This document shows positions 12,870 through 27,679 of a stretch of DNA of 32,000 bases, piece after piece. Made by a program: the position numbers and the translations under genes. Source of the stretch: Pyrobaculum calidifontis JCM 11548 (GTDB lineage: Archaea > Thermoproteota > Thermoprotei > Thermoproteales > Thermoproteaceae); NCBI RefSeq assembly GCF_000015805.1, contig NC_009073.1, positions 630,001 through 662,000 on the forward strand, in the 5' to 3' direction. Under the pieces are notes generated by a model. That model worked only from the letters and a program-made list of their open reading frames with translations, was not told the origin of the DNA and searched no databases. The first letter of the stretch is position 1. Each line of letters starts with the position of its first letter.

Positions 12870-13169
12870 CTAGGCGTACCTCTCCAAGTTCTCAATAGCC
12901 TCGGCGAAGCCCCTCCTCTTAAGCTCCTCCACATCCCTCTTGTCGTACTTATGCACTATGTCGCCCTTATCCTTCTCAAAATCCCACAGAGCCACAATAA
13001 CGTAGTCCCCCGCCTTGAGCCAAAGCTTCTTCCTCAGCCTACCCGGCAGACGCGCCACCCTTATCTCGCCGTCGGCACAGATAACCCTAAACCTCCCATC
13101 ACCCAGCATCTCCAACACCTTGCCAAGAACTTCCCCCTCCCCAGGGACTCTAAACTCAGACACGTGCAT
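12870..13169 (-). CDS. eif1A: Translation initiation factor aIF-1A
   Basis: The S1/OB signature GEVLGKVLEMLGDGRFRVICADGEIRVARLPGRLRKKLWLKAGDYVIVALWDF...GDIVHKY is present. In-frame candidate starts are TTG 13172, ATG 13169 and GTG 13163. GTG 13163 has the best spacing to the CTTTATAA box at 13185-13192. Confidence 0.9.
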   Translation of the reverse strand: MHVSEFRVPGEGEVLGKVLEMLGDGRFRVICADGEIRVARLPGRLRKKLWLKAGDYVIVALWDFEKDKGDIVHKYDKRDVEELKRRGFAEAIENLERYA

Positions 13170-13178
13170 CAAACACGC

Positions 13179-13263
13179 GGGGGGTTATAAAGTTGCCGGC
13201 CGACCCCCCAGCAAGGGCGCAGTTTTCCAGTGGGGCCGGCTCCACGGCGCCCCCGCCCCTTGC
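13179..13263. repeat. Nested GC-rich inverted repeats in the spacer between the TnpB-like gene and aIF-1A
   Basis: G6 13179-13184 pairs with C6 13204-13209. GCAAGGG 13211-13217 pairs with CCCTTGC 13257-13263. GGGGC 13232-13236 pairs with GCCCC 13249-13253. All were read directly from the sequence. Confidence 0.6.
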
Positions 13264-13265
13264 CG

Positions 13266-13997
13266 CTAGACGTTGGGGTAGTACAGCCTGAATATCTCCC
13301 TAAGCTCGGCCAATTGCCTCTCTCTTCCAAGCCTCCTCACGATGTTTCTGGCGAGGGCCCACACGGCGTTGACGTCTCGGTTGAGCTGGATTTTGCACTG
13401 GGGGCAGTACACCAGCCTGCCGCGCTTCTCCATCCTCCCCCCGCACAGCGGGCACACGTCGGAGATCATCGTGGTGTGAAGCTCCACGTAGTGCTCTCTC
13501 GCCAGTTCAAACACCTCAGAGAGCAGGTGCTGGAACTTGGGCATGTGCGGCAAATCCACTATGAGGATGTTTACGCCCTTCTTAGGGTGAAACGCCTCCT
13601 TGACGCCGTTTGCCACCCCCTTAGCCGCCAGCTCCACGTATCCCCCCATCCTAAACACCCGGTACATCACCCCGCCCTCGTTCACGTCCATGGCATGTAC
13701 AACCAGCGGAGACCCATCCACCATCTCGGGAAGCCCCACCTTCTCATCCCCCCTAACCAGGCGGACAATCACTCTATCCCCCCTCACCAAGGCCTCCGCC
13801 TTAGCCAGCCCATACGCCTCAACGTCGGTGTACGTGAGGCGCCAGCTCTTATACATGCAGATCGGCACGTCGCCTCCGTAGAGCGCCACAAAGGACTCCA
13901 CTACTTTAACCGCGCCGCCCAGCTCCACCACTGCGTAGTCTCCGCCCAACGCCTCCCTGGCCTTTGCCGCATCGCACTTAAGCGAGTACGTAAACAC
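13266..13997 (-). CDS. TnpB/OrfB-like (IS200/IS605 family) RuvC plus zinc-ribbon protein, N-terminally short (243 aa)
   Basis: The zinc ribbon CPLCGG-x11-CPQC is followed by NRDVNAVWALARN (RuvC-III-type signature). HAMDVNEGG is RuvC-I-like. FQHLLSEVFELAREHYVELHTTMISD matches the segment that precedes the zinc ribbon in TnpB. The start is GTG, and the frame upstream is closed at 14103-14105. Confidence 0.65.
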   Translation of the reverse strand: MFTYSLKCDAAKAREALGGDYAVVELGGAVKVVESFVALYGGDVPICMYKSWRLTYTDVEAYGLAKAEALVRGDRVIVRLVRGDEKVGLPEMVDGSPLVVHAMDVNEGGVMYRVFRMGGYVELAAKGVANGVKEAFHPKKGVNILIVDLPHMPKFQHLLSEVFELAREHYVELHTTMISDVCPLCGGRMEKRGRLVYCPQCKIQLNRDVNAVWALARNIVRRLGRERQLAELREIFRLYYPNV

Positions 13998-14250
13998 GGA
14001 GGTGAATGAGGGTACATTAAATACTATTTCAACGCGTAGCCGCCAAGCAGTTCTAAATCGGCGCTGGCGAACTGCGGTGTATTTGGACTGCGCCGCCTTA
14101 CCTCACTCGTGGCTAGGGCGTTGGTAGTTTCTGCAATCGCCTCGACGTGCCATGGGCACATATTTACCGCTGTAGTGCTGCCGACAGCCTTCTATCATTC
14201 CCCATATAGCCCTGGCTCAAAGCTTGCATAGGATTGTGGCCTTGCCCCTC

Positions 14251-14284
14251 GCCGCCTGTAGCCTCACCTTCTAAGGCAGGCGGC
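14251..14284. repeat. 8-bp perfect inverted repeat (hairpin)
   Basis: GCCGCCTG 14251-14258 pairs with CAGGCGGC 14277-14284, leaving an 18-nt loop. It lies inside a 345-bp non-coding region. Confidence 0.55.
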
Positions 14285-14375
14285 GCACAAGCCGTCAAAT
14301 ACAATACCACATACACATGTACATACAAGATGTCCCATTTAATTGAGGCTGCGCAAGTTGCACGTGACGACGTCC

Positions 14376-15884
14376 ATGTTCTTAAAGCTCTTGAAATACG
14401 ACGTTGGGTACGTCAAAAGGTATTGGGTGTACGCTGTGCCGTTTTACGTGACCTACGTCTTACTCGTCGTTTTTCAACTGCTTTTGAACTACCTGTTGAT
14501 GGTGTTAATCGACACTACTCTCGCGGCGGATTTCCACGCCGCAGTTTTCTACACCGCGGCCTTCCTCTCCACGCTGGGCGCCGCCATGGTCGTCAACTTC
14601 TTCACAGAGTACCTCTCCGACTTGTATAAGAAGGCCGTTGAGCTTGACTTGGCCCTCCGCGTTGTAGAGAGAAGGGTGGAGGACCCCTCTCGCCCGTCGG
14701 GGGAGGTCTTGTCTCGTGTCACCGCCGATTTGGAGAACGCCGTCTACGCAATTGCGACGCCGCTTTGGCTTTTCTTTGTGGTTGGGCGAGTGGCCGCGGT
14801 CGCCCTCTTCGCCTTTTGGCTTCAGCCCCTCTCCCTCCCCCTTATACTCCCCTTCGCCGCGCTCTACGCCGTTTTGATGAAGAGGGTGGGGCCACGCCTA
14901 TTGGACGCTAGGTCTAGGGAGAGGGAGGCCTACGGCGGCTGGTTCAAAAGGCTGAAAGAGGCTGTGGAGGGGGCACACAGCTTACACAGACTAGGCCTCA
15001 GGGGAGCGCCCAAGCTGTTGACAAACGCCACCGCCACATACTTCACCCAATTCAGGAGGTTCACGCTGTACAGCCGCTCCGCCTTCTTTCTCATGGAGAT
15101 ACCAGCCTACGTGGGGCCAAACCTCGTCTTCGTGGTGGCGCTGTTTTTGGCTCTGCAGGGGCAGGGCACTGTGGGCGGAGCCGTGGCTCTTAGAAATGTG
15201 TTAACCGGCCTCTTTGAGCCCATCGGCCACCTCATGTCCACGGTGGGCTCTTTTTACGTTATGGCCTCGTCTTTTCAGCGTATTGAGCCTCTTCTGCGCT
15301 CTGCACAACCCCGCGTTGTGAGGGGGGCCGTGGCGTATCTAAGGGACGCGGTCTTTTCTTACGACAACGGCGTAGTTGTGGAGGTGGTGGGTGAGGTGGC
15401 TGTTGAGGAGGGTGACTTCGTCTGGGTTAGGGGGCCTTCTGGGGCTGGGAAGTCCACCTTGGCTAAGGCGCTGTGTGGCCTTGTGGAGCCCGCCGGCGGC
15501 GTTGCGGTGGCGGCTGTGGACTGCGTCTACGTGGGCAACGACGACTACCTCTTCGACGCCACTGTGTACGAAAACATCGACCTTTGGGAGGGGAGGCCTA
15601 GGGGGGATGTGGAGTGGGCCGCCGCGGCGGCGGGGGTGGACTTCCCCTTGGACAAGAGGTGTGGGGAGGGGGGTAGGGAGCTCTCCGAGGGGCAGAGGCA
15701 GAGGGTCCTCATCGCCAGGGCTCTGCTGCGTAGGCCTAGGCTCCTCGTCCTCGACGAGGCCACCTCCGGCTTAGACAAGGAGCTAGAGGCAAAGGTGCTA
15801 CAAGCTGTGCGGCAGGCGGCAAAGGCGGTGGTAGTAGTGTCGCACAGAGACAGCCCAGCACAGTACAGCAACAAAATAATATGA
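14376..15884 (+). CDS. ABC exporter, fused TMD-NBD half-transporter (MsbA/MDR type)
   Basis: The N-terminus has about 6 TM segments. The NBD has Walker A GPSGAGKST, signature LSEGQRQRVLIARAL, Walker B LLVLDEATSGLD and VVVSHR. The start is ATG 14376, and the ORF-track start is TTG 14343. Confidence 0.85.
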   Translation: MFLKLLKYDVGYVKRYWVYAVPFYVTYVLLVVFQLLLNYLLMVLIDTTLAADFHAAVFYTAAFLSTLGAAMVVNFFTEYLSDLYKKAVELDLALRVVERRVEDPSRPSGEVLSRVTADLENAVYAIATPLWLFFVVGRVAAVALFAFWLQPLSLPLILPFAALYAVLMKRVGPRLLDARSREREAYGGWFKRLKEAVEGAHSLHRLGLRGAPKLLTNATATYFTQFRRFTLYSRSAFFLMEIPAYVGPNLVFVVALFLALQGQGTVGGAVALRNVLTGLFEPIGHLMSTVGSFYVMASSFQRIEPLLRSAQPRVVRGAVAYLRDAVFSYDNGVVVEVVGEVAVEEGDFVWVRGPSGAGKSTLAKALCGLVEPAGGVAVAAVDCVYVGNDDYLFDATVYENIDLWEGRPRGDVEWAAAAAGVDFPLDKRCGEGGRELSEGQRQRVLIARALLRRPRLLVLDEATSGLDKELEAKVLQAVRQAAKAVVVVSHRDSPAQYSNKII

Positions 15885-16302: not shown

Positions 16303-17070
16303 TTAACCTGTATGCCTTATCTCGATACCCATGTCCTTCAACGCGGCGTTGAGCCGCTTGAGCATCGCCTTTACGTCGAGTTCTACCACTCGGCTGTCCA
16401 CGGTCTCGAAGTGGATCCAGTCGTGGGGCACCCTCATCCTCCTGGCCCGCACTATCCTCATCCTCCTCACGTGGAGGCCCATCTCCTCGAGCTGGGGGTC
16501 TACCTCCAGGGCGATGATTACGTCGGCTAAGTGCTCTGCCGCCACCACCATGCCGTATATCTCCTCCACGTCTGTGTGCGCGGTCACCAGCACCACGGAC
16601 TCCGTCCGCTTGGCGAAGATCTTAAACGCGCGGAAGAGGTCAAGCGACGCGCCCGGGCTCCTCATCAAGACCTCGTTCAAAGAGTCAAACACCACGAGGC
16701 CGCCTCTGAACTCGTCCACGAACTCCAACAACTTGTTCACCACGGTGTAGGCGTCGAGAGACTCCAGCCTGTGCCTCGCCGGGGGCTTAAGCTTAGAAAA
16801 GCGCTCGCTGGGCGCCACGAACCCGTCGACGATGGTCACCCGGTCCAGGGGCGCGCCCCGGGCCTTGAGCTCCTCAGCCACTTCATCTGCCATGGAGTCC
16901 ACGGCGAATATTAAGACAGGCGCGCCGGAGATAGCCGCCGTCGCCGCCATAATGGTGGCGAAGAAGGACTTCCCAACGCCCAGCTGGCCCTCCAACAGCA
17001 CTAGGTAGCCAGGCGGAATGCCCTCCGGCAGATTCTCGTCAAGAGGCCCCACCCCAGTCTTTAAACCCAT
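16303..17070 (-). CDS. KaiC/RadA-paralogue-type RecA-superfamily ATPase
   Basis: MGLKTGVGPLDENLPEGIPPGYLVLLEGQLGVGKS contains the Walker A motif and GGLVVFDSL the Walker B motif. ATG 17070 has TTATTATA 19-26 nt upstream on the minus strand. The ORF-track extension to 17220 overlaps the divergent gene and is R/G-rich. Confidence 0.8.
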   Translation of the reverse strand: MGLKTGVGPLDENLPEGIPPGYLVLLEGQLGVGKSFFATIMAATAAISGAPVLIFAVDSMADEVAEELKARGAPLDRVTIVDGFVAPSERFSKLKPPARHRLESLDAYTVVNKLLEFVDEFRGGLVVFDSLNEVLMRSPGASLDLFRAFKIFAKRTESVVLVTAHTDVEEIYGMVVAAEHLADVIIALEVDPQLEEMGLHVRRMRIVRARRMRVPHDWIHFETVDSRVVELDVKAMLKRLNAALKDMGIEIRHTG

Positions 17071-17137
17071 GTGCATAGAGGCGCGGGGTATAATAACATT
17101 CCCCGTAATACAGATAAATACACATCTCCAACCTACC

Positions 17138-18028
17138 GTGCGCGTGACCCTCAGCGTCGTCCGGCCCTTCGACCCCTGGCGCAACCCGCTGTGCACATGT
17201 CCCCCCAAGTACGGCCTCAACCCCTACACGGGGTGCGGCCACGGCTGCCTCTACTGCTACATCACCTCGTACATTCCCAACGCCTTTAACCCAAGGCCCA
17301 AGGAGAGGCTCATGGAGCTAGTCAGGAGAGACCTGGAGAAGATCCCAAGGGGGGCCGTAGTCGCCCTGTCAAACTCCTCAGACCCCTACACCCCGCCCGA
17401 GGCCCAGCTAGGCCTCACGAGGAAGGTCCTGGAAGCCCTCCTAGAAAGGGGGTACAGAGTGCTTATAACCACGAAGTCCCCCCTAGTCCTACGCGACTTA
17501 GACATCCTGGCAAAGCACAGGGAGAGGGTGGCCGTGCAAATCACTATTACAACGCTGAGGGAGGAGCTGGCAGAGAGGCTGGAGCCGCGCGCCCCAAGGC
17601 CCCGCGGCAGACTCGACGCCGTTAAGAAGCTCGCCGAGGCCGGCATCAAAGTCACCGTGAGACTCGACCCCCTCATCCCCTACCTCAACGACGACGAGGA
17701 GAACATCGAAGAAGTCGCCTCCTCCGCGGCCGCCGCCGGCGCTGTACACTTAGTGGCAAGCACGTACAAGGCAAAGCGAGACAACTTCGCGCGACTGGCA
17801 AACGCCTTCCCAGACAAGGCCCCCCTCTGGCGCGACCTGTATTTTGAGAAAGGTCAGTACTTCCACGGCCAGTGGTATGCTCCCGCCGATTACAGGAGGC
17901 GCGTGCTCGCCGCCGCGGCGGAGGCGGCCAGGCGACACGGCCTACAGTTCACAATCTGCCGTGAGGAATTCCTCGACTTGAACACGCCGGGCGCCTACTG
18001 CGACGGCAGCCACCTACTGCAGCGCTGA
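17138..18028 (+). CDS. Radical SAM protein of the SPL / DNA-repair-photolyase-like family (COG1533 type)
   Basis: NPYTGCGHGCLYCY carries the CX3CX2C cluster. The overall layout matches the SPL-like radical SAM family. GTG 17138 lies about 24 nt after GATAAATAC (17112-17120). Alternative starts are ATG 17069 and the ORF-track start 17018. Confidence 0.75.
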   Translation: MRVTLSVVRPFDPWRNPLCTCPPKYGLNPYTGCGHGCLYCYITSYIPNAFNPRPKERLMELVRRDLEKIPRGAVVALSNSSDPYTPPEAQLGLTRKVLEALLERGYRVLITTKSPLVLRDLDILAKHRERVAVQITITTLREELAERLEPRAPRPRGRLDAVKKLAEAGIKVTVRLDPLIPYLNDDEENIEEVASSAAAAGAVHLVASTYKAKRDNFARLANAFPDKAPLWRDLYFEKGQYFHGQWYAPADYRRRVLAAAAEAARRHGLQFTICREEFLDLNTPGAYCDGSHLLQR

Positions 18029-19042: not shown

Positions 19043-19157
19043 GGAGTCTAGATCTCTCTCTTATTTATGGTTTATGGTGAGTAACTTTTTAAACATTGGC
19101 ATAATATTTAGTGCCCCTGGCGTGGGGTGTCGAGCCGCCGCACAGGCGCCGGTGAAC

Positions 19158-19177
19158 ACGCCCCCTCCAAGGGGCGT
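19158..19177 (+). other. Perfect 7-bp GC-rich hairpin followed by ACA
   Basis: ACGCCCC (19158-19164), loop CTCCAA, GGGGCGT (19171-19177), then ACA at 19178-19180. It lies in a 286-bp intergenic region downstream of AT-rich promoter-like sequence. Confidence 0.4.
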
Positions 19178-19328
19178 ACACACGCAAGCCGTTTAGCGCG
19201 TTAGATAAAGCCGCGTGCCACCATTGTAGTCTGGGTATGCGCCTTAGAGGTCGCAATGTCCGTGTTTGTGTCTAAAGGCGGTTTTGGGCGACCCTAGAGA
19301 GGTTATAAACTGGCGAGTGTTGTGAGAC

Positions 19329-21050: not shown

Positions 21051-21137
21051 TTGTACTAAAAGACGTGAATATTACAACGCTTTACTTATCCCTTACTTTT
21101 GAGGAAAAGTATTATTAATACTGGGGTTTTGTGGCCT

Positions 21138-23978
21138 GTGAGCGAGCTTGCCAAGTTCTTTATCGAGGTGGCGGAGAAGTGGCAGAGGAGGTGGGCCGAG
21201 GCCAAGGTGTTTGAGCCCTCGCCGCAGCCTGGGAGGCCTAAGTTCTTCATAACGGCGGCGTATCCCTACCCCAACGGGACTATACACATTGGCCACGGCA
21301 GGACATACCTAGTCGCAGACGTAATGGCGCGCTTCCGCCGCCACCTGGGCTACAACGTGCTGTTCCCCATGGCCTTCCACTACACCGGGACCCCCATTTT
21401 GACCATCGCCGAGGTCATCGCCGCTGGGGACAAGGCCGTCATAGAGGAGTACAAGGAGATATACGGCGTGTCAGACGACGACATTAAGAAGATGGGGGAC
21501 CCGCTCTACTTGGCGCAGTACTTCCACCGCAGGTCTAAGGAGGCAATGATCAAGTTCGGCCTCGGCATTGACTGGAGCCGGGAGTTTACCACGATTGACC
21601 CAGAGTACCAGCGCTTTATCCAGTGGCAGTTTGAGAAACTGAGGAAGAGGGGCCTAATTGTGAGAGGGAGGCACCCAGTGGGGTGGTGCCCGCGGCATCA
21701 AATGCCCGTGGGGGCCCACGACACTAAGGACGACAAAGAGCCCGAAATCGGCCAGTGGACTCTCATATACTTCGTTGATGGGGAGGGCTTGGTGTACCCC
21801 ACGGCTACTCTCAGGCCTGAGACTGTGCCCGGCGTGACGAACATCTGGATTAACCCGGACGCGGAGTACGTAGTGGCCGAGTTCGAGGGGAGGAAGATGG
21901 TGTTGAGCAAAGACGCGGCGTATAGGCTCTCCTTCCAAGGCAACGTCAAAGTGATTAGAGAGGCCAGGGGGAGAGAGTTCGTGGGCAGGCGGGTGTTAAA
22001 CCCAGTGACGGGGGAGTGGGTGCCGGTCTACGAGGCCAAGTTCGTGGACCCCAAGGTGGGGACTGGGGTAGTGATGTCCGTGCCCGCCCACGCGCCGTAC
22101 GACTACGCGGCGCTGAGGGACATGGGGGAGGTGAAGCTCATCCCCCTGATAAGGGTGGAGGGGTACGGCGAGTACCCCGCCAAGGAGGTGGTGGAGCGGA
22201 TGGGGATAAAGAGCCAGACCGACCCAGCCCTCGAGGAGGCGACTAGGGAGGTCTACTCCGCGGAGTATACGAGGGGCGTGGTTAGAGAAGACGTGGTTGA
22301 CCGCATAGCGCCTCACCTCCCCGAGCCCGCGAGGTCTATGGTGAGGGCCGTGTTTAAGCTGTACTTCGCCGGGAGGCCTGTGAAAGAGGCGCGGGAGTTC
22401 ATTTCCAAGTGGCTCGCCGAGGCTGGGCTAGGCGGCGTGATGTACGACATAATGAACAAGCCGGTGTACTGCAGATGTGGTACTGAGATCGTGGTGAAGG
22501 TGCTGGAGGACCAGTGGTTTATAAACTACGGGGAGAGGGGCTGGAAGCAGTTGGCGAGGCAGTTGGTAGAGGAGATGGCCATAATTCCGCAGGAGGCCAA
22601 GGCCCAGTTCTTGGCCACCATAGACTGGCTGGATAAGAGGGCCTGCGCCAGGACTAGGGGGCTGGGCACGCCTCTGCCGTGGAGCCAGGGGTGGGTTATC
22701 GAGAGCTTAAGCGACTCCACCATCTACATGGCCTTCTACACGGTCATCAAGAAGATCAGGGCCCTGGGGCTGAGGCCGGAGCAGTTGACAGAGGAGTTTT
22801 GGGACTACGTGTTCCTCGGCCAGGGGAGCGCGGCAGAGGTGGCGAAGAGGATAGGCGTAGACCCCGCGGCCCTTGAGGAGATTAGGCGCGAATTTGACTA
22901 CTGGTACCCCCTGGACTCTAGGAACTCGGGCAAAGACCTCATACCCAACCACCTCACCTTCTTCATATTCAACCACGTGGCCATCTTCCCCAGGGAGAAG
23001 TGGCCAAGGCAGATCGTGGCCAACGGCTGGGTGCTGAGGGAGGGGGAGAAGATGTCTAAGTCTAAGCGGAACGTCTTGCCCTTGGACAAGGCGGTGGCGT
23101 TGTACGGCCCAGACCCGCTCCGCGCCACGTTGGCAATAGCGGCGGAGGTGGAGCAGGACCTAGACTTCAGAGACGCAGAGGCGAGGAGAAACTCTCAGCA
23201 GCTCATGTCTATCTACAACCTCGTGCAGAGGCTGGCGCAGAGCGCCGTGGAGAGAGAGGAGACTTGGCTTGACAAGTGGCTGATCTCCGAGGTGGCGCAC
23301 GTCCTCGAGAGGGCTAGAGAGGCGTATGAGAAAGTGAGGCTGAGGCAGGCCGCCGTGGAGCTGTTGTACAACGCCGAGGCCGTCTTTAGCCAGTACCTCT
23401 CCATGGTGGACAAGCCGTCTAAAAGCGCGGTGGAGGCCGCCAAGGCGTGGGTAGTGGCCCTGGAGCCCATAGTGCCGCACTTCGCCGAGGAGCTCTGGCA
23501 AATTCTCGGTGGCGAGGGGTTTGCCGCGACGGCGCCTTGGCCAAAGCTGAGCCCAGACCCAGCCGCCCTCTTGGCCAAGAGGTATGTGGACATGTTGATT
23601 GAAGATGTGAAAAACATCCCCGCATATAAGGCCGGGGCGAAGAGGGTGGCGATATACGTCAACGGCAACTACCAGTGGCTGAGAGCCGCCGTGGGGAAAG
23701 ACGTCAAGGCGGCCATTGAGGCGGGAGCCCCGCCCCAGTTGGCCAAGAGACTCGTAGACTTCGCCAAGTCCATGGGCGAAGAGGTGAGGGGGCTCGTAGA
23801 GCGCGTGGAACAATTCGACGAATACGCCGCCCTCCAGTCGTACAAGAGGTACGTAGAAAAGGCGCTTGGAGTTCCAGTGGACATATACAAGGCAGACGAC
23901 CCCCAGGCGCCAGACCTAGGCGGAAAGAAGAAGGCGGCGCTACCCCTAAAGCCCGGCATATTCATAGAAGTAGGCTAG
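21138..23978 (+). CDS. leuS: Leucyl-tRNA synthetase
   Basis: The HIGH motif (PYPNGTIHIGHGRTY), the KMSKS motif (KMSKSKRN) and a CP1 editing-domain-sized insertion are present. GTG 21138 lies about 24 nt after ATTATTAATA (21111-21120). The ORF-track start is TTG 21099. Confidence 0.93.
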   Translation: MSELAKFFIEVAEKWQRRWAEAKVFEPSPQPGRPKFFITAAYPYPNGTIHIGHGRTYLVADVMARFRRHLGYNVLFPMAFHYTGTPILTIAEVIAAGDKAVIEEYKEIYGVSDDDIKKMGDPLYLAQYFHRRSKEAMIKFGLGIDWSREFTTIDPEYQRFIQWQFEKLRKRGLIVRGRHPVGWCPRHQMPVGAHDTKDDKEPEIGQWTLIYFVDGEGLVYPTATLRPETVPGVTNIWINPDAEYVVAEFEGRKMVLSKDAAYRLSFQGNVKVIREARGREFVGRRVLNPVTGEWVPVYEAKFVDPKVGTGVVMSVPAHAPYDYAALRDMGEVKLIPLIRVEGYGEYPAKEVVERMGIKSQTDPALEEATREVYSAEYTRGVVREDVVDRIAPHLPEPARSMVRAVFKLYFAGRPVKEAREFISKWLAEAGLGGVMYDIMNKPVYCRCGTEIVVKVLEDQWFINYGERGWKQLARQLVEEMAIIPQEAKAQFLATIDWLDKRACARTRGLGTPLPWSQGWVIESLSDSTIYMAFYTVIKKIRALGLRPEQLTEEFWDYVFLGQGSAAEVAKRIGVDPAALEEIRREFDYWYPLDSRNSGKDLIPNHLTFFIFNHVAIFPREKWPRQIVANGWVLREGEKMSKSKRNVLPLDKAVALYGPDPLRATLAIAAEVEQDLDFRDAEARRNSQQLMSIYNLVQRLAQSAVEREETWLDKWLISEVAHVLERAREAYEKVRLRQAAVELLYNAEAVFSQYLSMVDKPSKSAVEAAKAWVVALEPIVPHFAEELWQILGGEGFAATAPWPKLSPDPAALLAKRYVDMLIEDVKNIPAYKAGAKRVAIYVNGNYQWLRAAVGKDVKAAIEAGAPPQLAKRLVDFAKSMGEEVRGLVERVEQFDEYAALQSYKRYVEKALGVPVDIYKADDPQAPDLGGKKKAALPLKPGIFIEVG

Positions 23979-23980
23979 GG

Positions 23981-26900
23981 CTACGATTTAGGCGAGGCGC
24001 CTGAGAGATTTGGCAGAACTTCGGTCTTAAACTCGTCGAACAGCTCGCCCAGTACCTCCTCGAATTTGGCCTTGCCTTGCTCCACTGCGTCCATGTGTTG
24101 CTCTATTAGCCTAGTCCGGTCTTCGCTTACAAGTTTGCCGAACTTCTGCTCGAGGTAGTGGTACACCTCTATCCCCCTCTTCGTGGGAACCATTAGCCTC
24201 CTCCGGCCCGCCACGTATACGTAGTACCTCTTGGCGAGCACCTGTAGGATGCGGGCGTAGGTGCTGGGCCTGCCAATCCCCCTCTGCCTCATCAAGGCCA
24301 ACACGTCGGCCTCTGAGAGAATTCTCCTAATCACGCGGTACCTCTTCACGGTCACCTCTATGGTGCCCGTGGGGAGGCCGGGCTCGACCGCCGTCACTTG
24401 GTACATCACTTGGAAGCCCTGGCGCTTGATGTCCACGACTCTCTCCACCTGGGCCACGTACCCGTCTATCTCCACCTCGTACCGCTCTACCTCCACCTCG
24501 CTCGGCTCCATTTGGCTAGCCATAAACCGCCTGAACACGAGGTCGTAGAGCTGGTAGTGGCTTCTCGTGAGGCGTATGGCCAACTGCAACACCCCGGCGT
24601 TTACCAGCCCCCTCAGCTCCTCCACGTCTATGGGCCTCGTGGGCCTAATGGCCTCATGGGCCCCCTCTGCCTCCTCGCCCCAAGTCCTCGGCCTAAAAGC
24701 CCCCTCTCCAAACCTCTTCGTTATGTACTCCCGCGCCACGGCGATCCCCGCCGCGGAGACCCTAGTGCTGTCGGTGCGGTGGTAAGTTATAAGCCCGCTC
24801 TCAAAGAGGTCTTGGGCTATCCTCATGGCGTAGTCGGCTGAGAGGCCCAGCCTATTCACGGCGTCTCTCAAAAGCTCGTCGGTGGTATACGGGGGCGGGG
24901 GGTTTACGACCCGCGTCTCGGCGCCAGCCTTCCTAATGGCCACCCTCCGCCTCTCCCTAAGCGCCTTCAGCGCCTCTTGAGGCAGCTGTAGCCTCAGGTC
25001 AACGTCGTCTAGCTGTAGCTCCACGTTGTACATCCTCTGCCGGAGCGACTCCTCGTACGTCGTGACAACCCAGCCTAGCACGGGGGTTTGGACGCGGCCA
25101 GCCGACAAGTTCGGGCTCCCGAACTCCCTCTGAAGAATCTTGCTTAGCCCAAAGCCTATCCACCGGTCCTCAATACGCCTAATGATCTGCGCCTTTACGC
25201 GGGAGTAGTCAATGCCCCTGGGGTTAGCCAAGGCGCTTATAATCGCCCGGCGGGTCACCTCGTGGAATTCCACACGCCTAATGTCGGCCACGTAGGGCCT
25301 AAGGCCGAGGTAGAGATCAAAGGCAATTTTCTCGCCCTCAGAGTCTGGGTCAGTGCCGATGAGCACGGCGTCGACCTCGACGGCGAGGTTCCTAATCGCA
25401 GCCAAGACGTCGAGCGGCCGGCAGTCCGGCGGCACGTCGACGTCGTCCACGTACACGGCCCCCCTACAGCGCCAAATCTTGTTGTACACAGGCACAAAGC
25501 CCCCCTCTGTCGCCAACACGGCGTATTCGCCTCCGTCGTAGTCCCCCCGCCTAAAGTCGCCGAACCACCTCCTGAGGACCTCTCTCTCCTCCTTAGAGAT
25601 TCTATCGAGGGAGGTGGGGAGCTCGTATATGTGGCCCAGCGAGGCCGTCACCATCAATACGGCGTCTCCAGTGGACACCTCGTAGACGGGCACCCCGTCG
25701 ACCAACAACATGCTGGGCCTGCCGAAGAAGTTGGCGATAGTCCTCGCCTTGGTGGGAGACTCCACCACCATTAACAAAGTCCTCATAAGCTCTCTGCCCC
25801 CCGTAACCACCGCCTTCCCCTCCATTATCTCCCTAATAGTCCTCCTGTCCCTGTCCACTTCTGCCAGAACGGCGGAGAGGTCCACCTCGTCCAGGCGCTT
25901 AAACTCAGCCTCGTCAAACCTCAGCTTCAGCTCCCTCTGGAGGGCGGTGAAGACCTTCCAATCGTCCACCACGACCACGCTGAGGCCCTTGGAGAGGCCG
26001 CCCGCGTAGAGCCGAGAGGTCCGCCCACTCCCCTGTATATACGTCGTGACGTCTGGCACTAACACGTACAACTCCCCGCCTATGTACGCCAGGCGCACCT
26101 CCGTGGAGGAGTCAATGGCTCTGCGCAACTCCTCGTCGCTGAGTATGGAGTTGGCGAGCTCAACCGCACCCTTCGCCACGTCCACCGCGTGTTTCTCAAA
26201 GCTGGAGAGCTCTTGGCCCTCCGCCGCCTTCTTCAACGCCTCCTGCACGCTCAACGCGTAGGGGGCCAGGCGCTTCAATTGGCCAATGGCCCTGTCCACC
26301 TTGTACCTCAACTCGCCAGAGAGGACAGCTCTGACGTTGTAGAAGAAGGTCAAGTACGCGGGTATGGAGAACTCCTCCAGCCTAACCCTAAACTTGTACT
26401 TGGGCACTCCCACAAACACCACGTACCTAATCACGTGGGGCAGGTCTATCCCCCTCACCAGCGCCGACCTGGCAGAGGCCAACCCCACCAACGCCGCGAG
26501 CTCCCCTCTCTCAAACCTCTCCAGCACCCCCCTCCTAGGCCGCAGAAAGTGTTCAACTGCGAGGCTCTCCCCCACGGCCCTCTCCACAATGGCAAGCCCA
26601 AGCTCTCTGTCCTGCACGTAGACAATCCCCCCGGGGCCAAGCCTCTTGAGCAACTCCACCACCTGCCCCACCACGTCTTTCCCCTGCTCGACGTACACGT
26701 CGACCACGTTCCGAAGCCCCTCCGCCCTGCCCCCCACGTCGAAGCCCAGAATCTCCCTAAACAAGAGGAGCCGCGTCGTCCTCCTCGCCCTAGCCAATGC
26801 GCCAGAGGCGACGAAGATGCCCAACTTAAGCCTCCTCGCCTCCTCTTGCAACTTGGCCCTAAGCGCCGTCACCTCTGCGTCTAGCCGCTCCACCTCCTTC

Positions 26901-27679
26901 AAATCCCCCGCAATCTCCGCCTTCCGCAACTCCTTCACCGCGTTTATGACGTCCAGGGCGAGCTTCAACACCTCGTCGGAGACGCCGAGGAGTCTCAAAA
27001 TTCTGTCAATGTTCTTACTCGTCGCCCTGAGAATGCTGTCGACGTCGTCCGCCGCCACGAAGTCAAACTTAAACCTCTTCAACAAGTCGAAGTAGCGGGG
27101 GAGGAAGGCAGAGGTGACGATCAACACGTCGAAGTCGCCCCCCTCAACGGCCCCCAAGGCCTCCTTCTTCTCCTTCTCCGTTAGAAGCGAGTGGTAGGCC
27201 ACCGCCCTCACAGACACGCCGGCCTTCTCGGCGTAGCTCAAAAGCCTCTGGTGAACCTGCCTAGCAAGCGCCGAGGTTGGGAAAATGAGGAGCGCCCTCT
27301 TCCCCTCCCGCGCCGCGTATAAGGTGGCCACAAGTATAAACGTGGTCTTGCCAGAGCCCGTAGGCGCCACAATTGCGAAGCTCCTCCCACGGACAAACCG
27401 CCTAGCCCAAAGCCTCTGGGCACCCCACATCTCAAACCCGACCGCCGCCTTGAATAGAGAGGAAAACTCCTCGTACCGCCTCAAGTACTCGTCAACCCAC
27501 GCCAAGCCCTTCAACGCCCTCCTCCTACGGAGGGCTCTAACAACATCGGCAATGCCGCCGGCCTTAACCACCTCAGGCAGACACTCACGGCAGGGGAGGC
27601 CCCCCGCCAGTCTGTCAGAGGTGACGGGCCCCCCGCAGTTTGGACAAGAGTGTAGATACACCACAAGTGGGATATCCAC
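23981..27679 (-). CDS. rgy: Reverse gyrase
   Basis: About 1230 aa. There is an N-terminal zinc finger CPNCGG...CRECL, helicase Walker A APTGSGKTT, and a C-terminal Toprim/topoisomerase IA module (VESPTKARTI, TDPDSEGE, ITYHRTDS with the catalytic Tyr). The start is GTG 27679, 27664 or 27661. Confidence 0.95.
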   Translation of the reverse strand: MDIPLVVYLHSCPNCGGPVTSDRLAGGLPCRECLPEVVKAGGIADVVRALRRRRALKGLAWVDEYLRRYEEFSSLFKAAVGFEMWGAQRLWARRFVRGRSFAIVAPTGSGKTTFILVATLYAAREGKRALLIFPTSALARQVHQRLLSYAEKAGVSVRAVAYHSLLTEKEKKEALGAVEGGDFDVLIVTSAFLPRYFDLLKRFKFDFVAADDVDSILRATSKNIDRILRLLGVSDEVLKLALDVINAVKELRKAEIAGDLKEVERLDAEVTALRAKLQEEARRLKLGIFVASGALARARRTTRLLLFREILGFDVGGRAEGLRNVVDVYVEQGKDVVGQVVELLKRLGPGGIVYVQDRELGLAIVERAVGESLAVEHFLRPRRGVLERFERGELAALVGLASARSALVRGIDLPHVIRYVVFVGVPKYKFRVRLEEFSIPAYLTFFYNVRAVLSGELRYKVDRAIGQLKRLAPYALSVQEALKKAAEGQELSSFEKHAVDVAKGAVELANSILSDEELRRAIDSSTEVRLAYIGGELYVLVPDVTTYIQGSGRTSRLYAGGLSKGLSVVVVDDWKVFTALQRELKLRFDEAEFKRLDEVDLSAVLAEVDRDRRTIREIMEGKAVVTGGRELMRTLLMVVESPTKARTIANFFGRPSMLLVDGVPVYEVSTGDAVLMVTASLGHIYELPTSLDRISKEEREVLRRWFGDFRRGDYDGGEYAVLATEGGFVPVYNKIWRCRGAVYVDDVDVPPDCRPLDVLAAIRNLAVEVDAVLIGTDPDSEGEKIAFDLYLGLRPYVADIRRVEFHEVTRRAIISALANPRGIDYSRVKAQIIRRIEDRWIGFGLSKILQREFGSPNLSAGRVQTPVLGWVVTTYEESLRQRMYNVELQLDDVDLRLQLPQEALKALRERRRVAIRKAGAETRVVNPPPPYTTDELLRDAVNRLGLSADYAMRIAQDLFESGLITYHRTDSTRVSAAGIAVAREYITKRFGEGAFRPRTWGEEAEGAHEAIRPTRPIDVEELRGLVNAGVLQLAIRLTRSHYQLYDLVFRRFMASQMEPSEVEVERYEVEIDGYVAQVERVVDIKRQGFQVMYQVTAVEPGLPTGTIEVTVKRYRVIRRILSEADVLALMRQRGIGRPSTYARILQVLAKRYYVYVAGRRRLMVPTKRGIEVYHYLEQKFGKLVSEDRTRLIEQHMDAVEQGKAKFEEVLGELFDEFKTEVLPNLSGASPKS

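Follow-up and report, generated by a model that had tools for sequence, protein, structure and literature searches.

In a 32,000-nt window of the Pyrobaculum calidifontis genome (by window we mean this whole stretch of DNA), an open reading frame (ORF) on the minus strand at positions 13266 to 13997 starts with GTG and encodes a protein of 243 residues. The protein is an exact match to WP_011849366.1 (ABO08108.1; UniProt A3MTZ1), which the databases label 'Transposase, IS605 OrfB' or 'zinc ribbon domain-containing protein'. An initial annotation of the window described it as a half-length relative of TnpB and left two possibilities open: a decaying remnant of an IS1341-type insertion sequence (IS), or a domesticated, minimal and possibly RNA-guided protein. 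Here we show that this TnpB-like gene is a conserved, single-copy, vertically inherited host gene of Thermoproteaceae. The gene and the domains of its product are as follows, dN/dS being the ratio of non-synonymous to synonymous substitution rates.

13266 to 13997, minus strand: complete gene of the TnpB-derived 243-residue protein (ORF, orthologue alignment, dN/dS 0.04–0.11).
13713 to 13997, minus strand: N-terminal beta-rich domain, residues 1–95, with seven strands and two short helices (AlphaFold2).
13464 to 13712, minus strand: minimal RNase H/RuvC core, residues 96–178 (AlphaFold2 secondary structure, invariant residues, Foldseek).
13386 to 13463, minus strand: four-cysteine (C4) zinc ribbon, residues 179–204 (C182, C185, C198, C201), equivalent to the TNB domain (PF07282, invariant Cys, hhalign).
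13269 to 13385, minus strand: RuvC-III helix (R207-D208-V-N-A...ARNI) and C-terminal helix, residues 205–243 (alignments, AlphaFold2, hhalign).

The landmarks given in the initial annotation, namely the C-terminal sequence and the motifs HAMDVNEGG (D104), ILIVDL (D148) and RDVNA (D208), were all found in the ORF. As it had also stated, the frame is closed upstream by a TGA at 14105–14103, and the ORF listing has no start codon between this TGA and 13997. Orthologues use ATG or GTG at the same position as the window gene. Thus, there is no hidden N-terminal extension, and the protein is truly as short as 243 residues. Below, L-numbers (e.g. L006, L012) denote loci that carry the TnpB-like gene or its relatives and P-numbers (e.g. 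P0026) denote proteins.

We identified 22 full-length orthologues in Pyrobaculum and Thermoproteus (69–98% identity), 20 of them exactly 243 residues long and the others 242 and 237. The species-representative genomes contained 16 loci in 15 genomes, and the two complete genomes with a match, P. oguniense TE7 and Pyrobaculum sp. WP30, had one locus each. Metagenomes contributed 29 further loci (68–98% identity), and overall ≈ 45 loci keep the full length. The L019 copy is longer and contains an assembly gap of Ns, and the L021 copy is split by an internal duplication in a contig of a metagenome-assembled genome (MAG); we treated both as artefacts or strain-level defects. An exhaustive hidden Markov model (HMM) search of 1.84 billion cluster representatives returned only three full-length clusters (243, 245 and 229 residues). 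The other matches were short fragments of the family, a few short C-terminal TnpB fragments and short partial matches in unrelated long proteins; no longer protein that was alike over the full length appeared in this search. The family is limited to one archaeal family plus two close lineages.

The gene is under strong purifying selection. Nei–Gojobori dN/dS values for unsaturated pairs were 0.04–0.11 (for example, 0.044 for L006–L007 and 0.072 for L009–L010). Pairwise identities of the TnpB-like protein correlated with those of the neighbouring aIF-1A (Spearman 0.93), of a radical-SAM gene (0.82) and of a KaiC-like gene (0.75). Mean pairwise identity was 0.70 for the TnpB-like protein, 0.75 for aIF-1A and 0.59 for the KaiC-like protein, and the TnpB-like protein thus diverges about as slowly as aIF-1A. 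We sought transposon ends and found no inverted repeats flanking the gene. No transposase lies among the neighbour genes; in agreement with the initial annotation, which had reported no tnpA nearby, the annotated ORFs between 9444 and 18761 include neither a Y1 transposase nor a serine recombinase. No relatives turned up in phage records or viral contigs, and plasmids yielded only the C-terminus of a haloarchaeal TnpB pseudogene. All contigs that hold the exact 243-residue protein have the same neighbourhood. The initial annotation had named three outcomes that would speak against it, namely no profile match to the TnpB RuvC/zinc-ribbon region, many near-identical longer copies elsewhere in the genome and absence of the ORF from the orthologous locus of close relatives; judged by these, the data favour domestication. 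The proposal of a domesticated, minimal TnpB-like protein is supported by conservation, synteny, dN/dS and the single locus.

To what extent is the protein a TnpB? The Pfam family PF07282 (Cas12f1-like_TNB, formerly OrfB_Zn_ribbon), one of the profiles suggested at the outset, matched residues 154–213 with 29.6 bits (cutoff 26.3; E = 8e-7). Comparison of the family profile with haloarchaeal TnpB by hhalign gave a probability of 96% and E = 2e-9 over residues 154–240, including the tail that follows RuvC-III. Weak C-terminal matches were obtained with the NCBIfam TnpB and Cas12f models, the PADLOC Cas12f models and one PHROGs transposase family; as a check for defence systems, PADLOC gave no system-level match for the neighbours. 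Scores with the curated NCBIfam TnpB models were far too low, with 16.9 bits against a cutoff of 100 for NF040570 and 13.7 against 425 for NF038281. Genuine haloarchaeal TnpBs carry PF07282, PF01385 and PF12323 together, and in the 243-residue protein the Pfam models PF01385 and PF12323 had no match. A profile–profile comparison with an alignment of 20 haloarchaeal TnpB sequences covered residues 155–225 only, with no extension. Because alignment to TnpB is restricted to the C-terminal region, RuvC-I and RuvC-II could not be mapped by sequence. Searches of the PDB with the single sequence and with the profile gave nothing significant, the TnpB-like chains 9j09 and LaTranC appearing only at E 0.2–1.3, and a homologue search from the TnpB-like fragment P0031 returned 2 proteins. 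The resemblance is nevertheless better than chance, and on the strength of these alignments we take the C-terminal ≈ 90 residues to be homologous to the zinc-ribbon and RuvC-III region of TnpB/Cas12f.

We then modelled the protein with AlphaFold2 from an alignment of 23 sequences. The best of five models had a predicted local distance difference test score (pLDDT) of 92.8 and a predicted template modelling score (pTM) of 0.90; the other four had pLDDT values of 88.6, 79.7, 61.2 and 59.6. In the best model, five strands within residues 98–174 form an RNase H-like core. Strand beta1 holds AMDVNE (D104, E107), beta4 ends in IVDLP (V147, D148) and beta5 is YVELH (E172). The helix between beta3 and beta4 consists of four residues only, so that the usual core helix is almost gone. 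Residues 182–201 form the C4 zinc ribbon and residues 207–239 two helices, the first opening with R207-D208; the C-terminal helix is nearly invariant (RRLGRE.QLAELREIFRLYYPNV).

The top matches of the model in a Foldseek search of the PDB were AsCas12f (E = 3e-5), ISDra2 TnpB (2.8e-4), Cas12g, ISFba1 TnpB and other Cas12f chains, followed by Fanzor2, with E-values from 3e-5 to 2e-2. These alignments span ≈ 270–300 columns, implying that most of the query is aligned across the REC gap. Members of the RuvX family (1vhx, 7ess) and RuvC (6s16) ranked lower, with smaller alignments confined to the core. In the Foldseek library of viral structures there were 19 matches at E ≤ 1e-3, and those that carry names are TnpB/Fanzor-type transposases. 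The initial annotation had held that a WED/REC-like N-terminal half is missing. This was correct for the helical REC lobe, which is absent from the AlphaFold2 model; a helix at residues 10–17 is all that is seen instead of a REC insertion. It did not hold for residues 1–95, which are confidently predicted to form a beta-rich domain. Modelled alone, this domain gave a pLDDT of 87.4 and a secondary structure identical to that in the full-length model. Foldseek found nothing significant for the isolated domain; five chains of Cas12n, Cas12f, TnpB and CasLambda were among the top 20 at E 0.5–0.9. Judging from the model, it is plausible that residues 1–95 are a WED remnant.

The strand assignment of the AlphaFold2 model, together with TnpB fragments such as P0034 ('KIEDP'), placed the canonical RuvC-II Glu at residue 147. 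This residue is V, A or I in all members. The loss of the canonical Glu that had been suspected from the P. calidifontis sequence is thereby borne out for the whole family. The canonical D-E-D triad of RuvC is incomplete: D104 and D208 are kept, and the beta4 Glu position is V/A/I. D148 is the counterpart of a conserved, non-catalytic Asp just after the RuvC-II Glu. After the divergent lineages P0026 and P0027 (43–45% identity) were added, 59 positions remained invariant. Among those invariant down to 43% identity are D104 and E107 (beta1 and the following turn), D148 (end of beta4), E172 (beta5), D208 (RuvC-III) and the four Cys; R207-D208-V209 and A211 are likewise invariant, and N210 is present in all members but one. 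In the hhalign alignment E172 is matched to a Thr of canonical TnpB, indicating that E172 is an acidic residue specific to this family.

A missing RuvC-II Glu has precedents. Altae-Tran et al. (2023; PMC10691335) described whole TnpB clades without it, in which a Glu from another position apparently stands in, and noted that RuvX carries its Glu on beta5. The nuclease activity of the present protein may be impaired: the canonical Glu is gone, yet five acidic residues of the RuvC half are invariant, a pattern that fits the 'RuvC-II rearranged' (RIIr) TnpB clades and RuvX. From the conserved residues and the model, we infer that a rearranged, still functional active site is at least as plausible as a dead one and, in our view, somewhat more likely.

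The suggestion that the protein is RNA-guided was examined at the gene's flanks, where the following features lie.

14016 to 14023, minus strand: TATA-like A/T-rich element TATTTAAT, 19–26 nt upstream of the GTG, read directly from the sequence.
13998 to 14342, no strand: upstream intergenic region of 345 nt in which no feature was detected (unconserved in related loci, no Rfam match, folding z-scores −0.46 and +0.18).
13173 to 13265, no strand: spacer of 93 nt between the gene and aIF-1A, unconserved in relatives and only ≈ 30 nt long in L011 and L013.

Elements resembling TATTTAAT lie at a similar distance upstream of the start in orthologues. The TATA-like element could therefore give the TnpB-like gene its own promoter, with a short or absent leader. 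BLAST of the 345-nt upstream and 93-nt downstream regions of the window against all related loci gave no match. A search of positions 13000–14450 against Rfam returned nothing at gathering thresholds and nothing even at E ≤ 1. Folding z-scores (−0.46, +0.18) revealed no stable RNA fold, and a tRNA scan was also negative. There is little room for an RNA at the 3′ side: the next gene begins 3–5 nt past the stop codon, or overlaps it, in L008, L009, L010 and L014, aIF-1A starts ≈ 30 nt past it in L011 and L013, and in Thermoproteus the TnpB-like gene overlaps at its 3′ end with a convergent neighbour. The sequence downstream of the stop codon is unrelated between lineages. Synonymous diversity remains flat over the coding sequence, at 0.42–0.59 per 15-codon window, and does so even at the 3′ end, where amino acid conservation peaks; this indicates that no overlapping RNA structure constrains the gene. 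We thus found no evidence, from comparison of sequences, of a cis-encoded guide RNA beside the TnpB-like gene in any lineage examined. The idea of an RNA-guided protein gained no support, the flanks being neither conserved nor roomy enough for an omega-RNA and the synonymous sites free of constraint.

Three genes of the window recur near the TnpB-like gene in its relatives.

12870 to 13172, minus strand: aIF-1A (PF01176), conserved neighbour by synteny.
16303 to 17220, minus strand: KaiC-like ATPase (PF06745), recurrent neighbour.
17018 to 18028, plus strand: radical-SAM protein related to PA0069/Rv2578c (below NCBIfam cutoffs), recurrent neighbour.

The adjacency to aIF-1A noted initially was confirmed, aIF-1A lying 93 nt downstream of the TnpB-like gene on the same strand. 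It is likewise in tandem downstream in L007, L011 and L013. In most other Pyrobaculum (L001, L005, L008–L010, L012, L014, L020, L022) aIF-1A is divergent, the start codons lying 51–149 nt apart; the distant P0026 lineage has the divergent arrangement too, with RIO1 in between, and in Thermoproteus there is no aIF-1A within 6 kb. In Thermoproteus a KaiC-like gene immediately precedes the TnpB-like gene on its strand, with a gap of 22–49 nt, and in L006, L007 and L011 a second KaiC paralogue is found directly upstream. A metallophosphoesterase of ≈ 210 residues (Metallophos_2/3), absent from the window, abuts the TnpB-like gene on either side in ≈ 8 genomes. The radical-SAM gene is no more than a few kb away in most loci, and in the distant P0026 lineage it immediately follows the TnpB-like gene. 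Thus, the gene order is rearranged between lineages and the same genes keep recurring near the TnpB-like gene. This recurrence suggests a functional link to KaiC-family ATPases and to enzymes that process nucleic acids or nucleotides.

Several further observations were made on the neighbourhood. The order relative to the metallophosphoesterase gene also swaps, and the clustering persists through repeated local rearrangements. The KaiC-like ORF (16303–17220, minus strand) and the radical-SAM ORF (17018–18028, plus strand), both called mechanically, overlap by ≈ 200 nt at their 5′ ends. The KaiC domain begins near residue 52 of its ORF and KaiC-like orthologues have ≈ 254 residues; the true start therefore probably lies inside the ORF, which would leave a short divergent promoter region. 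A fused ABC transporter with membrane and ATPase domains (14343–15884, plus strand) stands between the TnpB-like and KaiC-like genes in the arrangement of this genome only. Leucyl-tRNA synthetase (LeuRS; 21099–23978, plus strand) adjoins reverse gyrase (23981–27679, minus strand) in the window. Thermoproteus and the P0026 lineage likewise have LeuRS close to the TnpB-like gene, and its presence there in several lineages marks a conserved region of the core chromosome. The only match in the window at Rfam gathering level was the H/ACA-box small RNA PyrR201 (RF02801) at 19113–19180 on the plus strand (86.6 bits, E = 2.4e-15).

Other loci differ at the immediate flanks. In L025 (2036–3127), the gene for P0027, the most divergent member (229 residues), is directly preceded on the same strand by a gene with a Mut7-C RNase domain, with a gap of 27 nt, and thus has a further neighbour of the nuclease type. 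In P. oguniense (L012:4806–5910, minus strand) two extra genes lie between aIF-1A and the TnpB-like gene, one for a 199-residue protein with no function assigned and one for a 181-residue SocA/Panacea antitoxin-like protein. This insert indicates that both flanks of the TnpB-like gene accept accessory DNA. Between L001:5661–10732 (a P. aerophilum-like MAG) and L012:6661–12728 (P. oguniense TE7; also L021), nucleotide identity rises from ≈ 75% to ≈ 99.7%. The jump falls exactly 72 nt short of the stop codon in the TnpB-like gene; from there the near-identical block extends at least 6.4 kb downstream, to the ends of the loci. It encodes proteins of 717, 186, 773 and 198 residues with no Pfam match. 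The block could be an integrative element with its attachment site in the conserved 3′ end of the gene, or else the product of recent recombination with a crossover at this point.

The explanation that we favour, and to which we give a little better than an even chance, is that the gene derives from a TnpB (IS200/IS605 OrfB) and, immobilised and exapted, serves Thermoproteaceae as a host gene that encodes a guide-independent nuclease or binding module with a rearranged active site and a KaiC partner. What our data show is a TnpB nuclease that has been immobilised and has become the product of a vertically inherited, single-copy gene. It retains the C4 zinc ribbon, a reduced RuvC/RNase H core and, ahead of this, a domain rich in beta strands that may be the WED barrel. 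The REC lobe is gone, as are the transposon ends, the cis omega-RNA and a large part of the helical insert of RuvC. We further propose that RNA guidance has most likely been given up, leaving a small, metal-dependent nuclease or nucleic-acid-binding module that acts without a guide. In the proposed active site, D104 (beta1) and D208 (RuvC-III helix) would be joined by E172 (beta5) or by E107 (turn) in place of the beta4 Glu. In the processing or repair of DNA or RNA, its probable partner would be the KaiC-like ATPase; the recurring metallophosphoesterase and radical-SAM protein may take part as well.

Several points weigh against this explanation. Sequence homology to TnpB is demonstrable for residues ≈ 154–240 only, and the rest depends on Foldseek matches with a template modelling score (TM) of about 0.33. 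Three of the five AlphaFold2 models were poorer (pLDDT 79.7, 61.2 and 59.6), and the assignment of the N-terminal domain as WED was not significant by Foldseek. The placement of E172 and E107 beside D104 and D208 is a prediction. With the Glu replaced by V/A/I everywhere and the helix between beta3 and beta4 nearly gone, the domain may be catalytically dead. There may be an RNA partner encoded in trans. Finally, there is no fixed operon, and the apparent link to the neighbours may be no more than synteny that is slow to decay, in a conserved chromosome region to which LeuRS also belongs.

If the domain is dead, the protein might be a regulator that binds nucleic acids and no longer cuts them, comparable to the bacterial TldR or sigma-associated Cas12f systems but with no guide or with one encoded in trans. 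It would contact DNA or RNA with the zinc ribbon and the beta domain and regulate neighbours such as aIF-1A. We consider this unlikely, though worth serious attention. In its favour, no member has the canonical RuvC-II Glu, the RuvC core has been cut back, and the divergent arrangement with aIF-1A in many loci (51–149 nt between start codons) would provide a shared promoter region, of 50–150 bp in most genomes. Exapted, inactive TnpB regulators set a precedent (PMC10691335; PMC10705468), but in this family D104, D208 and three more acidic residues are invariant to 43% identity, unlike the fully mutated branches. A guide-RNA locus and REC are absent. Furthermore, Thermoproteus no longer has aIF-1A next to the gene, and in the lineage of the window the two genes have the opposite relative orientation.

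A bolder version of the host-gene explanation seems doubtful to us. Here, the 243-residue WED–RuvC–zinc-ribbon protein would be the product of a core housekeeping gene that evolves slowly like aIF-1A, and would be either the smallest natural member of the TnpB/Cas12 lineage, still using a trans RNA, or a new crenarchaeal nuclease for repair or RNA processing that works with a KaiC-family ATPase.

Slightly more doubtful still is a protein that remains an RNA-guided nuclease with its guide encoded in trans. In TnpB, WED binds the RNA scaffold and REC holds the guide–target duplex. A WED-like beta domain is possibly retained, and the fold of the whole protein is closest to RNA-guided TnpB and Cas12f, but the REC lobe is missing, no conserved non-coding sequence accompanies the gene and no overlapping RNA constrains it. 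In addition, short RuvC-only archaeal TnpBs have been judged unlikely to bind a guide (PMC10691335).

The protein might also be no reduced TnpB at all, and instead a relic of a stand-alone RuvC and zinc-ribbon ancestor of TnpB, or an independent fusion of these parts; we rate this as improbable by a further step. The restriction of TnpB sequence homology to residues 154–240 and the presence of RuvX and RuvC among the structural neighbours would be expected of such a protein. Its distribution would not, since the family occurs in one archaeal family and two close lineages only, whereas TnpB is ubiquitous. Furthermore, over the full length TnpB and Cas12f match the model better than RuvC or RuvX do, the zinc ribbon is inserted where TnpB specifically has it, and the part that follows RuvC-III aligns with TnpB as well. 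As to the decaying IS200/IS605 (IS1341-type) tnpB pseudogene of the initial annotation, the shortfall of ≈ 150 residues relative to TnpB, the UniProt label 'Transposase, IS605 OrfB' and the missing Glu lend it next to no credibility, and we rejected it: length and start codon are kept in ≈ 45 loci, purifying selection is strong (dN/dS 0.04–0.11), the gene is syntenic with one locus per genome and evolves about as slowly as aIF-1A, and it has no longer relatives.

TnpB is the ancestor of Cas12. Its recruitment to host functions has lately drawn attention (Cas12, TldR, sigma-associated Cas12f); those characterised cases that we found come from bacteria and are still guided by RNA. The present family shows how far a TnpB can be trimmed under strong selection in a hyperthermophilic archaeon: 243 residues, no REC, no cis guide and a Glu that is rearranged or lost. 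If catalytically active, the protein would be a minimal RuvC and zinc-ribbon nuclease, and a Pyrobaculum/Thermoproteus gene labelled 'transposase' or 'zinc ribbon protein' would acquire a function. If inactive, it would add to the dead-TnpB regulators a counterpart from archaea that has no guide. Its recurrent place behind KaiC-like ATPases makes it a testable candidate for the output module of these poorly understood archaeal ATPases.

How does the protein compare with known systems? Like TnpB (ISDra2 TnpB, 8h1j) and Cas12f (8j12), it has a C4 zinc ribbon (TNB) before a RuvC-III helix with an RD.NA...N motif, an RNase H-like core with a beta1 Asp, a beta-rich domain at the N-terminus and, beyond RuvC-III, a similar tail. 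Unlike them, it has 243 residues instead of about 400, lacks REC and has nearly lost the helical insert of RuvC; the canonical RuvC-II Glu is replaced, omega-RNA, transposon ends and TnpA are missing, and the gene is single-copy and vertically inherited. The 243-residue protein is thus a homologue or derivative of TnpB that is without the REC, the Glu, the omega-RNA, the transposon context and the model scores by which that family is defined.

TldR and other exapted, inactive TnpBs (PMC10705468; PMC10691335) resemble the present protein in being domesticated at a fixed chromosomal locus with an altered RuvC site. However, they are bacterial and keep REC and an adjacent guide RNA, whereas no guide locus is present here; and in contrast to TldR, most candidate catalytic residues of our family are invariant and only the Glu is lost. 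The initial annotation had known of no such domesticated protein described from Crenarchaeota. For archaea at large this must be put more cautiously, given the non-mobile TnpB clades of PMC10691335, including, in one sentence, RuvC-only proteins of ≈ 220 residues in Halobacteria. For the present family we found no description and no literature on PAE1076, the P. aerophilum protein, or on TnpB in Pyrobaculum. The haloarchaeal branch differs in host (Halobacteria versus Thermoproteaceae) and in having an apparently active RuvC according to PMC10691335, whereas the present family has an extra beta domain of 95 residues and no canonical Glu. The exhaustive profile search with our family retrieved none of those RuvC-only proteins.

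With regard to the active site, the counterparts are RuvX/YqgF and the RIIr clades of TnpB, which share the RNase H fold, lack the beta4 Glu and carry a Glu elsewhere (on beta5 in RuvX, in a loop in RIIr-5). The corresponding residues here would be the invariant E172 (beta5) and E107 (beta1–beta2 turn), a resemblance of sequence and strand position. RuvX has neither the zinc ribbon nor the N-terminal beta domain, and the RIIr TnpBs differ in being full-length and mostly mobile.

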